This document shows, one piece after another, positions 19,001 to 21,148 of a stretch of DNA of 64,000 nucleotides. Made by a program: the position numbers and the translations under genes. Each line of letters opens with the position of its first letter. Positions within the stretch are counted from its first letter, which is position 1. The notes under the pieces were generated by a model. It was not told the DNA's origin. It saw nothing but the letters and a program-made list of their open reading frames with translations, and ran no database searches. The stretch is from a virus: the IMG/VR virus record IMGVR_UViG_3300010413_000015, positions 10,952 to 74,951 of that record. One strand, 5' to 3'.

Positions 19001-21148
19001 TGCTGAGAAGTACTTGCCGGAGCGGAAGGGGGCAGTAAAGAAGCCCTTGCCCCATTCGACAAAGTGCTTCCCGTACTTACTGCCCTTTGCCCCCATGATA
19101 TCGAAGAACTTCCTGGCCACCAGCTCCTGGTCCATACCCTTCTTTGGGTCCGCTCCCGGAATGACCCTTAGGGATTCAGTAAGCCCCCTCATCCGTTGCA
19201 CCCCGATGCCGGGTACGTTTGCAAGGTCTCTGATACTCTGGAAGGGCCCGTGTTGCTCCCGATAGTCAATGATAGACTGTGCCGTTTTTGGGCCAATACC
19301 TGCTGCTCTCTGTAGCGCCTTGATATCGGCACGGTTGATGTCCCCAGCCTCAACCTCGTACTCAGCCTGACCGACAGCCTCCATGAGCGCAGCCTGAAAC
19401 TCGGGGTCGCTGGCACTGACAACGGGTGCCTGCAGCTCGCGCCGGGAAGGGCCAGATGCGAGAGTCGCGTTGATGACATCACGATAGGCGCTGCGGGTGC
19501 GAGCGCTAGCGCGTTCAAGCCTCCGGGCATACCTTGGATTCGTCGCTCTAAGGTTCTCCAGGTCCTCGTAGCCCAGGGTCCCAGCCTTTACGTCATACTC
19601 CTTCATGAGCTGGGTAAAGTAGTCGCCTACGAGAGCCTGCCGTCTCATATTTAGCACGTAACGCCTGGGGTCTGCCTCTCCCGTGACCGGGTTTGTCCAG
19701 ACCTGCTTCGGTCCCATGGCCGCGCCCATGATGTTGGGCCCGTACTCTGGGTCCCTGAGATAGTCTTCGTGGTAGACCTCGGGGATGACAATGTCCTGAA
19801 CCAGGCCAGGAACATTTCTGGCCAGGCGCTGTAGGGGTCGGTCCCCAAGTTCCGCATAGTTCCTGGGCATGCTCAGGAGGGTGCTGTACCCAAGTTCCCT
19901 GGCAATCTGGTTCTTCCTCCGCAGGCCAGCTTGAGACCACTCTGCCTGCAACATTGAGTAGGTGGCCCCCTGCACGTCCTTCAGGGCAGAGACAAAGTCC
20001 AGGTTCATTGGCTGGCCTTGGACATCGGTGATGTTGCTGAGGTCCCTCGTGCCCATCAGCACCTTCTGGTAGGCCTGTTTTCCGGCGAAGGCTACTTCAC
20101 TGGCAGGGGCAAACCGTTCCAGAACAAACTTCAGCTCTTCTTCTGTGGCCTCGCCTTCCTGGTTGGTGGCAGAGGTCCTCCGGGCCACATCCATGACACG
20201 GTAGCCCCATTCCCTATCACGAAAACCTGCAAGGCCCTCAGCAAGTTGCACATGCTCACCCCGACCCCAGGAAGTGCCTACGGGTACAGGCTGTAGGCCC
20301 ATGCCCCGCACTGTTCTTACTGTACGCTCTGTAACATTCCCAACACGGGGGTCCATCAGGCCCATGCCGGCAGGGGCGTGCTCACCACCGATAATGAGGG
20401 CGCCCCTTAGGTTCTGGCCCCGCTCCATGCCGTACTGCTCCCCTCCAGCAGCCAGGCCTGAGGTGACAACTGGCTTGCCACTGAGGAACACTTGCTGGTG
20501 GGCACCCAGCATTTGGATGCGCTTCATGAGCTTGCTCGGCTCGAAGGTAGAGATGAACCTGCCGGCGGCTCGCCCCAGCCAGCTTGACTCTAGGGTGCGC
20601 GTTGGGTAACTGAAGGCACCATCCTTGCGATAGATGTGTCCCTCTGGAACAATGGGCTGTCCATACTCATCACGTTGTACGGGTACACCCTGAAGTCTGC
20701 GCTGCCTGAGCTGGCCAGGGTAGTGTGTCCATTGGGACTCAGACACAGGAGCATAGGAAATGCGCCGAATCTCCTGCTCGGTCTTGCCTTGCTTTCGGGC
20801 CTCTACCCTGGCCAGGTTCTCAAGTTCGGCCAGTCTTTCCTTGTACTGTGTGTAGTCTGGGGCGACAAAGCGCTCGAGCTCGAGGATTGCCTGTCTTACC
20901 CCACCAACTGTAGGTGAGCGAAGGGTAGGAACATACTTGCGAATAGCCTCCCGTGAGTAGCCATAGTTCATTGCTTGCCACAGGAAGTCTTCGTAGGAAG
21001 CAGGGTCACTTTCCCTTGTTCCCTTTGGGCCCTCTCGTCCAGGCCAGTAGGTCATTGCGTAGGGAGCTTCATCGTCATCCCACCAGTAGTCATCACTGCC
21101 GGGGTCCTCTCTGGGTACCCATGGCCCGAACTGTTCCCTATTTGGCAT
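13079..21148 (-). CDS. Tape measure protein with N-terminal two-barrel (virion) RNA polymerase and inserted ComEA-like HhH module
   Basis: C-terminal half is Gly/Ala-rich and coiled-coil, ending GGDVTAGSSYLVGEVGPEIFVP (TMP terminus); N-terminal half has LGINEMYLP...FMIRFPT...MAGGDFDADIAY and DINRAD...GIGPKTAQSIIDYREQHGPFQSIRDLANVPGIG; a Pro-rich linker joins them. Confidence 0.8.
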   Translation of the reverse strand: MPNREQFGPWVPREDPGSDDYWWDDDEAPYAMTYWPGREGPKGTRESDPASYEDFLWQAMNYGYSREAIRKYVPTLRSPTVGGVRQAILELERFVAPDYTQYKERLAELENLARVEARKQGKTEQEIRRISYAPVSESQWTHYPGQLRQRRLQGVPVQRDEYGQPIVPEGHIYRKDGAFSYPTRTLESSWLGRAAGRFISTFEPSKLMKRIQMLGAHQQVFLSGKPVVTSGLAAGGEQYGMERGQNLRGALIIGGEHAPAGMGLMDPRVGNVTERTVRTVRGMGLQPVPVGTSWGRGEHVQLAEGLAGFRDREWGYRVMDVARRTSATNQEGEATEEELKFVLERFAPASEVAFAGKQAYQKVLMGTRDLSNITDVQGQPMNLDFVSALKDVQGATYSMLQAEWSQAGLRRKNQIARELGYSTLLSMPRNYAELGDRPLQRLARNVPGLVQDIVIPEVYHEDYLRDPEYGPNIMGAAMGPKQVWTNPVTGEADPRRYVLNMRRQALVGDYFTQLMKEYDVKAGTLGYEDLENLRATNPRYARRLERASARTRSAYRDVINATLASGPSRRELQAPVVSASDPEFQAALMEAVGQAEYEVEAGDINRADIKALQRAAGIGPKTAQSIIDYREQHGPFQSIRDLANVPGIGVQRMRGLTESLRVIPGADPKKGMDQELVARKFFDIMGAKGSKYGKHFVEWGKGFFTAPFRSGKYFSAEGALEQTEVSRYLRGQFGMVRSLLNQEKAPFVEYRRTVMEEQRKISESEQGLRRAQGVTPGRRYLEGYKVLGSKALGINEMYLPDREAGQAGFMIRFPTQGESSFDRAAQGITVSRELIEGLGYDPNRMVVSEYLQGMAGGDFDADIAYALMTGGAQVQGSKFYDAAGVELSPERVREIGRKRVQSEGAGSLPAEMVPGDQDLQAAMEIVRRKALDYHTMDEGKVEELVQENRELYNAIGPGFQDMRRLMSRALQIPGKVGQTARSAVQSIWNRSYGYTQRPAIPPQDVMSVHALMNTTTWGKAFMRSTGEWEKVGTGTLRNLAGLRKESVGAFAELVQQGVVSPEEAGAMFSGPNQKQAQQFAMMFKRFSAPEQRYKILPRMMKAGQTHEDWVREAASGQAIGGQWAGAVSRYAEKHGANLYGEFGARSVGRDLADTLLRFKSEMQDRLTALKKGAGQGVSIEEQAVALEASGMADWLATPGAEPPVAESPHPERAPRVPVAPPEMGPEPNLTPPTEVTQPAATQPTPPVATAAPAMAQSPVTRPGQLRRHLQQAGRRPAAARPTVAAPPGAPPPPNRPPVDPADPLAGMPGPNFDPNWVPPGVDPGAPIVPPSQGQQQRDLNPRQTAGSGKPWELGLWMSGSMRKTLDEVADHLKQWTPELRETIAVQRDLTRAEKEMLKDAQSFTKTFRQAQDIREQWAKVGPQGLTAAGVPQDVVATVTQNMQRLGRKLEKIENEPALTETIGAVETRDALQFQYDLYEATGGQRGRPAPKRPQGMRGTLGQGLDQLLQEFSFGGAYFRWTAAERIFGGPVNRAMEQARGLAGAQIGFATQMGGTAQSIMDSPMGRIMQAQAGQQAFAQGFGMGTLRGQAGISEILATLGGPSGAYGAGERLGAVGGPILKGLEFGAKAGIAASVLGRFGKTLGGESLLGRGMMGIGSRMGPIAALAGGVVTGGLLLGQAYEQAAPGNVYRELLGLATEPETQRGAFSWLKGMAGGGSPTKGDLSLGTGVGMGLRSILDKDYAGQLREGVAQYVKSGQIEIDRASLHIENLDIPGLDPAKKYETFSYLAELGYGPKAVYEGRVDELAKQLGPAAISGQLPGMASTLKQVSQYLGIGTGAGMWALSPYIPTTAAGQQNFLMASGVAGQLQQIGVGVSGQMLQQYMGQLAGGVTTTQLAALQEARYGMQPIVSAMGYTPGSAVAQRIGQTLGPQTAAVGGATAQIASQYRTFADMRGLGPEAAARYYQGLQQELEGQMVELPDGRVIYTPPGVTPEQMLRREQAAIGVGAAQEYGFAAGSPEAIGFMANAPWQSAQGMAQYEAAAGLGGQIYQYLGGNARALQGRVQAMAARGVSPAARQVWAQSVMGQGAVARGFGMAGAVAGQFEQGLQAALASGQMTPFEYAQFGEMANFASSALGYSAAQGVFGAEAQGAVGGFRSAMGMPLVEGAMPLHEIGPGGGIYGIGQLASRALSWNQLRQSQAYRMGTGQWATSSYGGRTYQMGMIGQIQRAELKLEQSRELYGMQAAAAAMAAQQQRAGIERAMESARLQYRQGQERLNLGFQQGTESLEQGYAQQQASFALGQRMWGVNTEFQRRQFGVQWQQMMQGQRWGREDMAFNRQQAGVQYTRGMEDINRAIRFASGREKQELLRQRGRMEEDYGVSEKRRGVEEGRQEKLWAQQAQAFKDQESHYEDIKRLETEQFEMQKEHMTQNYELQKRHMQENFDLSKKHMDESFALQMKHLQEQMGEAEAMAAMQQAIAAKQQEIAEDDMMYRLAQMTQEQKYFEEVVFPGQIEHQRLQDLTQDAYAAFLRQQLSDFSKDGDLWGKWDTLIGHFESSVKRDSSLDKAWQNLLDRIENRLNRMFQSQGDGGGSGNSLAGGGDVTAGSSYLVGEVGPEIFVPDQNGTIVPNMALRRLTASGFSVGNMNVSISVEGGRQDERQLAAEIWRKFEAELNKTASRQRMRGGLWQ
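13215..13227. repeat. 13-bp quasi-palindrome, copy 3
   Basis: TTTCCGACGGAAA in the TMP 3' end. Confidence 0.95.

Follow-up and report, generated by a model that had tools for sequence, protein, structure and literature searches.

The window analysed here comprises 64,000 nucleotides of the viral record IMGVR_UViG_3300010413_000015 (positions 10,952 to 74,951 of a record of 74,951 bp with an estimated completeness of 86%). Analysis of this window revealed a single unbroken open reading frame (ORF) of 2689 amino acids, at 13079..21148 on the minus strand, in which a phage tape-measure protein is fused to an N-terminal two-barrel RNA polymerase (RNAP). Within the polymerase lies an insert of 61 amino acids (602-662; 19163..19345, minus strand) that is, judged from sequence and structure model, a complete ComEA-type double helix-hairpin-helix module, (HhH)2, and a predicted binder of duplex DNA. 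The module has been inserted in frame into the connector of the polymerase, a part that contributes to the clamp in other two-barrel RNAPs; in the model it sits on a long helix and is followed by a flexible linker. Taking sequence, model and analogy with known systems together, we think it probable, with clear reservations, that it acts in cis as a sequence-independent grip on duplex DNA. Such a grip would strengthen the hold of the polymerase on the entering phage genome, and it might help to catch the template where it leaves the channel of the tape measure, support retention or processivity in pre-early transcription, or do both.

The identity of the module is supported by several comparisons. 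A first-pass annotation of this DNA had quoted a 55-residue peptide as a ComEA-type (HhH)2 domain; this peptide is exactly the minus-strand translation of the window at 19180-19345 and corresponds to amino acids 602-656 of the ORF, and the plus strand across the same interval contains many stops. Profile, PDB and structural comparisons all bore out that designation. The Pfam matches over the whole 2689-residue protein were to HhH-type families only, and the best of them, HHH_3 (PF12836), covered amino acids 603-653 with an E-value of 5.2e-16; its score of 58.9 bits is well above the cut-off of 27. The NCBIfam model of the ComEA HhH repeat (TIGR00426) scored 52.3 bits, slightly under its cut-off of 53.1, and a phmmer search against PDB sequences matched the ComEA chains of G. 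stearothermophilus and B. subtilis with E-values of 1e-8 to 5e-8. In the structure model, the segment superposed on ComEA 8dss_B with a Z-score of 7.0 and a root-mean-square deviation of 2.5 A over 57 residues at 46% identity, and on the T. thermophilus structure 2duy with a Z-score of 5.6. As in the DNA-binding domain of ComEA, two HhH units are joined by a loop. Both hairpins (G617-I-G619 and G647-I-G649) and the YRExxGPF core are intact, and the ComEA-like motif GIGPKTAQSIIDYREQHGPF has the same form, 'GIGPKTAQ...YREQHGPF...VPGIG', as in ComEA itself. The net charge of the module is +3. The presence of a ComEA-type peptide inside the ORF is confirmed as real and lies far beyond chance.

A search for shorter proteins with amino acids 520-780 returned only bacterial ComEA, matching the module alone at 44-59% identity. 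The annotated ComEA matches are proteins of 110-230 amino acids, mostly composed of SLBB and HHH_3 domains; they come from metagenome-assembled genomes, some of them of Thermoleophilia, and many share the 'G[IV]GPKTAQ' hairpin with the module. From these sequence matches, a bacterial comEA gene is the most likely origin of the captured module. The complete protein does not have the layout of a ComEA protein, which is periplasmic, secreted or membrane-anchored, and has a C-terminal HhH region together with an SLBB or oligomerisation domain. Here the module is internal to a phage protein of 2689 residues, embedded in a polymerase, and unlike ComEA it lacks a signal or transmembrane anchor as well as SLBB and oligomerisation domains.

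The insert was also found in independent sequence data. A separate Logan assembly encodes a near-identical 2689-residue protein with the same insert present. One contig from another study, corresponding to 19111-19586, covers both insert junctions with zero differences, and a contig from a further study (19227-19423) covers only the junction at 19345, also with zero differences. The second assembly and the junction-crossing contigs of two other studies indicate that the insert is not an assembly artefact. The GC content of the insert and its GC content at third codon positions are within one standard deviation of the rest of the gene, which is weak evidence given the length of 183 nucleotides; this similarity gives no sign of recent transfer, and the insert is not obviously a recent arrival. 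Across 18700-19900, contigs with 100% identity were found in runs of at least three studies, including a soil metagenome and an unspecified metagenome. The phage itself probably stems from a marine sediment metagenome.

The protein's N-terminal part, about 1125 residues, is a two-barrel RNA polymerase in which the catalytic motifs are intact and activity is predicted, as indicated by its sequence motifs and its modelled fold. We generated an AlphaFold2 model of amino acids 1-1200 (window 17549-21148, minus strand) using 30 relatives, which reached a mean predicted local distance difference test (pLDDT) score of 82.3 and a predicted TM-score of 0.80. In this model the polymerase domain spans approximately amino acids 41-1125 (17774..21028, minus strand). 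The top 50 PDB matches obtained with Foldseek were all second-largest RNAP subunits of cellular or viral enzymes. The VIA fold search, which is independent of Foldseek and covered 48,161 PDB representatives, gave as top matches P74-26 gp62 (Z 9.5, model residues 141-1013), QDE-1 (Z 9.3) and vaccinia Rpo132 (Z 9.1); Z-scores of 9.5-9.9 were recorded for P74-26 gp62, P23-45 gp64, QDE-1 and the RNAPs of African swine fever virus and vaccinia. Isolated double-psi barrel domains matched amino acids 776-895 in the same search. The first-pass annotation had placed the module within a polymerase, and these fold comparisons agree with it.

The catalytic residues are strongly conserved among the members of the family. 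The catalytic DFDAD motif (amino acids 858-862; 18563..18577, minus strand) has D858, D860 and D862 invariant in the family, with position 861 occupied by G in 20 members and by A in five. In the RxP motif of barrel A (R812-F-P814; 18707..18715, minus strand), P814 is present in all 27 members compared and R812 in 18 of them. Together, the two motifs satisfy the '[RK]xPx{20,100}DxDxD' filter of PMC10770324. The module had been described as lying about 150 residues upstream of the catalytic motifs, which proved roughly right, as the module ends at amino acids 656-662 and RxP is about 155 and DFDAD about 200 amino acids downstream. In the beta-like barrel B, the conserved lysines are K362 (25 of 26 members) and K390, followed by D391 (K390 in 26 of 27; 19979..20065, minus strand), and Q996-R997-P998 is nearly invariant; the conserved lysines and arginine were assigned to specific barrel strands by eye. 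A candidate duplex-binding helix was recognised at amino acids 206-217 (KLMKRIQMLGAH; 20498..20533, minus strand), in which nearly all family members share K206, K209, R210 and H217. By eye, this helix resembles the element 'HLKLFSSRIQLGLSKT' of QDE-1 (PMC10770324 Supplementary Fig. 8).

Two further observations concern the polymerase fold. A beta-rich insert in the beta-like barrel (amino acids 273-346; 20111-20329, minus strand) matches the bacterial RNAP beta-flap domains 3tbi_B and 3woe_A (Z 5.5), and from the model a flap or wall element may have been retained in the polymerase. The best matches of the model in BFVD were an uncharacterised protein of the Microcystis phage MaMV-DC (E-value 3.7e-8, TM-score 0.46 on the target) and, from Siphoviridae sp. 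ctnpt50, a 'minor tail protein' (E-value 2.3e-6). These structural matches suggest that more unrecognised tail-linked RNA polymerases are present in public viral protein sets.

To place the module, we assigned the polymerase elements from the secondary structure of the model, family conservation, the supplementary alignments of PMC10770324 and the ranges aligned by VIA. The beta-like barrel with its flap-like insert occupies approximately amino acids 218-516, the beta'-like barrel 781-880 and the bridge helix 938-969. The motifs of barrel B end near amino acid 516 (by eye) and barrel A begins near 781, leaving a connector of about 265 residues. According to the model, the module is in this connector between the beta-like and beta'-like barrels, a placement that is topological and not geometric. 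Rpb2-like chains align to model residues 41-722 (ending at up to 717-722), and the chains of Rpb1, A190 and A' align from model residues 564-588 on, starting at their own residues 10-28. In cellular enzymes, residues 10-28 at the N-terminus of the largest subunit are part of the clamp core. A conserved 'GxEVSxY' at amino acids 722-728 resembles, by eye, the 'GEMEV/GEMER' element of beta/Rpb2. On its N-terminal side, the insert is carried by a stalk helix (amino acids 582-601; 19346..19405, minus strand) that is aligned in all relatives, and the DSSP assignment of the model (H582-616) shows the stalk continuing directly into the first HhH helix. On the C-terminal side follows the linker of amino acids 663-673 (IPGADPKKG...; 19130..19162, minus strand), which is modelled with low confidence (pLDDT below 50 at amino acids 663-670). 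In two-barrel RNAPs the clamp is assembled from three pieces, of which the connector is one; in the Thermus phage protein gp96 the connector is short, disordered and placed near the RNA-DNA hybrid (PMC10770324).

The history of the insert was examined with a HMMER scan of 1.84 billion representatives, which identified approximately 24 giant relatives of metagenomic origin, with 2100-3231 amino acids and 23-34% identity. Every relative aligns in two blocks, at query positions of about 135-600 and 665-1190, and the gap between the blocks is far shorter in the relative. The multiple alignment with 24 relatives resolved a clean insertion of about 61 residues at amino acids 602-662, preceded by a conserved helix; the loop behind it has the sequence 'xLGLGPEE' in the relatives and 'IPGADPKK' here. 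A tree built from the polymerase domain groups the protein within a clade (support 0.99) that also holds P0004, P0014, P0005, P0010 and P0018, and these clade-mates are without the module at the insertion site. This nesting indicates that the insertion was a gain on the terminal branch of the present protein. A tblastn search of amino acids 1-1200 against 50,697 GenBank phage records produced HhH-sized matches only and no relative of the polymerase, and pattern scans of IMG/VR likewise yielded nothing closely related to the polymerase domain. In the loop aligned with the linker (window approximately 19130-19162, minus strand), about one third of the relatives show a helix/'xLGLGPxE'/helix pattern resembling a lone HhH hairpin, and no profile detected an HhH unit in this loop. 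The tip of the helical arm may, from these sequences, be a point of nucleic-acid contact across the family.

Small modules of the DNA-binder type were found at the polymerase in four of about 26 family members, and only in the present protein is the module inside the core. The nearest relative, P0004 (L002:180-8096), has an HhH region at amino acids 1468-1523 (HHH_3 E-value 8.6e-5, below the cut-off; iterated profile E-value 1e-9). P0010 shows an HHH_5 match at amino acids 1790-1839 (E-value 4e-5, below the cut-off), and P0007 a helix-turn-helix (HTH) at 1191-1230 that matches HTH_23 above the cut-off (28.9 bits) as well as models of sigma-70 region 4. The modules of these three relatives are all directly behind the polymerase domain. 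Another relative, P0043, has an N-terminal RNase_T exonuclease domain at amino acids 131-300 (E-value 5e-17). Since three relatives carry HhH or HTH units next to the polymerase, DNA-binding additions recur in the family, which argues against a meaningless insert. The concern raised in the first-pass annotation, that the insert might be sporadic and absent from all relatives, is thus borne out for the insertion site in about 24 relatives and not for the surroundings of the polymerase, where these three have an HhH or HTH unit of their own. We tentatively propose a wider reading, which we regard as possible and no better than that: tape-measure-fused polymerases would form a widespread and unrecognised metagenomic family whose members repeatedly recruit DNA-binding modules (HhH three times, HTH once) because an enzyme slim enough to pass the tail tube would lack a proper clamp, and in the present protein the module, placed in the clamp position, would act as a minimal clamp substitute with which the injected enzyme seizes the emerging genome.

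The closest known counterpart in architecture is gp96 of the Thermus phage P23-45, an active virion RNAP fused to a tape-measure protein that transcribes the pre-early genes (Chaban et al. 2024, PMC10770324; PDB 8H2M, 8H2N). Both proteins combine an N-terminal single-chain two-barrel RNAP, with RxP and DxDxD motifs, with a giant tape measure, and the gp96 structure matches the model with Z-scores of 7.1-7.2 (Z 7.2 over 308 residues). No significant sequence similarity was found: hhalign of the gp96 N-terminus with our protein gave a probability of 0.4% and aligned only the catalytic loop, which is not significant, with R812-F-P814 placed opposite 'FRNP' of gp96, and the phmmer search against PDB sequences matched HhH proteins only and did not recover gp96. 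The proteins also differ in length (2689 amino acids here and 5002 in gp96), and no peptidase domain was detected in ours. The gp96 connector comprises amino acids 605-679, of which 613-679 are disordered, and has no HhH, whereas the connector of about 265 residues is here mostly confidently helical and carries the module. In the VIA comparison the model was closer to the non-virion polymerases gp62 and gp64 (Z 9.5-9.6) than to gp96. These two and the proteins QDE-1 and RDR2 (Z about 9-10) share the same fold and the same order of elements with the model across both barrels. QDE-1, RDR2, gp64, gp62 and phi14:2 gp66 build the clamp from the connector and C-terminal elements, with no HhH reported; the crAss-like phi14:2 gp66 was not among the matches listed.

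HhH units tethered to a polymerase system, as here, are also present in the C-terminal domain of the bacterial RNAP alpha subunit, in Tex/Spt6, in the N-terminal domain of TEFM and in chimeras with topoisomerase V (Topo V). The alpha C-terminal domain serves as a small sequence-independent DNA-binding HhH unit tethered to polymerase, and engineered chimeras of the Topo V HhH region with a polymerase gain processivity. In those systems the HhH unit is a subunit of its own, lies at a terminus or was fused artificially, in contrast to the natural internal insertion in a catalytic subunit observed here. The searchable literature, including the papers citing the gp96 study, contained nothing relevant on HhH in a virion RNAP, and the present sequence family of tape-measure-RNAP fusions was not found there either. 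The earlier statement that a three-part fusion of tape measure, polymerase and ComEA module was undescribed therefore seems to apply only to the added HhH module, since fusion of tape measure and RNAP was already known from gp96 (PMC10770324).

The remainder of the protein has the features of a tape measure. A proline-rich linker (amino acids approximately 1195-1330; 17159..17566, minus strand) separates it from the polymerase, with 30% proline in amino acids 1201-1300 and a pLDDT below 50 from amino acid 1172 on. The tape-measure part (amino acids approximately 1331-2689 plus the stop codon; 13079..17158, minus strand) is rich in Gly, Ala and Gln and has one transmembrane-like segment at amino acids 1659-1681 (16106-16174). 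Weak C-terminal matches to the tape-measure family phrog_5062 and the tail-protein family NF047706 were detected, and the C-terminal halves of the relatives align with this part. Upstream are a tail tube gene (22021..23136, minus strand; Pfam Phage_tube_2, PF18906, E-value 5.9e-12) and two overlapping ORFs (21446-22033 and 21138-21665, together 21138..22033, minus strand), the second in the -1 frame. The ORF pair has the layout of a tail assembly chaperone pair, although inspection of the overlap showed no slippery heptamer in canonical register. Since the 2689-residue ORF follows the tail tube gene and these two ORFs, it occupies the slot of the tape-measure gene. The single ORF, its slot, the weak tape-measure and tail matches, its composition and the transmembrane-like segment support the earlier claim that the polymerase is fused to a tape-measure protein.

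The results presented above are consistent with the module acting as a grip on DNA in cis, and such a grip fits the model in which gp96 transcribes during genome translocation (PMC10770324). For the present protein, we infer that the module binds DNA and reaches the DNA path, that the polymerase is active and that the protein is present in the virion. Several observations weigh against a role as a grip. HhH peptide and profile searches found no HhH at the site of amino acids 602-662 in any of the approximately 24 relatives, and a second phage lineage carrying the module at this site was not found; with a single lineage, selection on the module is not measurable and the module could be dispensable. 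The modules of the relatives are outside the core, which fits a loosely tethered binder better than a precisely placed clamp substitute, and the sequences suggest that a loosely tethered binder is sufficient. Some members of the fold, such as PsbU, do not bind DNA. The lysines of B. subtilis ComEA that have been probed by mutation, K164, K193, K197 and K199 (PMC9747964), correspond by eye to T622, Q651, G655 and T657, none of which is a lysine, and the basic residues K621, R652 and R654 adjoin the aligned positions. The conserved minor-groove lysine (K63 in V. cholerae, K164 in B. subtilis) is absent, with T622 in its place and K621 adjacent; this is a weak case against DNA binding, since the 'KT' form is common in annotated ComEA. 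Finally, model confidence in the insert is only 59-77, and its placement in the connector is, as stated, topological.

If the absence of the module from about 24 relatives and its restriction to one near-clonal phage are given most weight, the insert could be a passenger, a small stable domain accepted by a tolerant surface loop of the polymerase and without a role in transcription or infection; the insertion site and its surroundings do vary in length across the family. We consider this unlikely, as the full ComEA signature is retained (58.9 bits), the base composition matches the gene, so that the insert is not obviously a recent arrival (weakly, over 183 nucleotides), and DNA-binding additions recur in three other family members. 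A tape-measure protein must also fit the tail tube, which would penalise useless globular inserts. An alternative with a lower probability still is a device for DNA entry, in which the module would hold the leading genome end in the virion or act as a ComEA-like ratchet against back-sliding. ComEA does promote DNA uptake by binding incoming duplex DNA (PMC3879209, PMC9747964), and the module is borne by the tape-measure protein, the presumed channel through which the DNA enters (PMC10770324). ComEA, however, functions in the periplasm in many copies, with an oligomerisation domain mediating this in Gram-positives (PMC9747964), whereas each tape-measure chain has one module and no oligomerisation domain; the module is embedded in the polymerase core and not in the channel-forming part, and the relatives without it evidently deliver their DNA. 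The ratchet of the ComEA type put forward in the first-pass annotation is accordingly improbable.

We regard as least probable, and as rather remote, that the module binds a partner other than duplex DNA, for instance the nascent RNA, some protein of the host or a different region of the tape measure. PsbU, Tex and the N-terminal domain of TEFM, which have the same fold but other partners, were among the sequence or structure matches of the module (Tex with Z 6.6, the TEFM domain with Z 5.4), and the gp96 connector may touch nascent RNA (PMC10770324). Against this, genuine DNA-binding domains of ComEA are by a wide margin its nearest relatives, sharing the hairpin motif at 44-59% identity, and the positive net charge of the module also favours DNA. 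A grip on duplex DNA in cis is the explanation that we prefer.

A second two-barrel RNAP of 732 amino acids with a DFDGD motif is encoded at 50768..52966 on the plus strand, opposite to the structural genes. It matches Pfam RdRP (PF05183) with an E-value of 9.5e-10 and 38.2 bits against a cut-off of 23.8, and phrog_34895 with an E-value of 1.5e-42. These matches make it a candidate for a non-virion RNAP and a parallel to gp64 of P23-45; both phages have a second, separate two-barrel RNAP in the genome. Alignment of the tape-measure RNAP with this 732-residue enzyme by hhalign covered only the catalytic loop and was not significant. A homologue of the 732-residue RNAP was not detected in the complete 87-kb phage of P0004, which is not proof of its absence.

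Very large tail-type ORFs are located downstream of the polymerase-tape-measure gene. Two giant ORFs of 1159 and 1648 amino acids occupy 3666-12642 on the minus strand, and neither these two nor most of the structural genes had a Pfam or PHROG match. The genome context of relatives was studied for the locus of P0004, whose tape measure is followed downstream by ORFs of similar size and matching order. The tail module also includes a glycosyltransferase-like gene (23049-24239, minus strand; phrog_7162, E-value 2.5e-22) beside the tail tube gene, and a methyltransferase-like gene (38002-39450) lies farther up the structural operon. The phage looks like a member of a deeply divergent siphovirus-like group.

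The first description of virion RNAPs fused to tape-measure proteins dates from 2024 and concerns a single group of Thermus phages, so that the fusion type itself is known; what our analysis adds is a family of such fusions that is separate in sequence and, inside one of its members, an HhH module. This family consists of about 24 divergent clusters, all metagenomic and found in samples of sediment and soil type, with none among cultured phages. One possible yield is a compact, self-contained polymerase for use in vitro. The locus bears on the questions of how DNA is held by an enzyme that lacks a normal clamp and how transcription and genome entry are linked. It represents a natural experiment in which one member of the family gained a ready-made, predicted duplex-DNA binder in the connector that forms the clamp, and a comparison with and without the module would bear directly on whether the grip on DNA limits injected polymerases.

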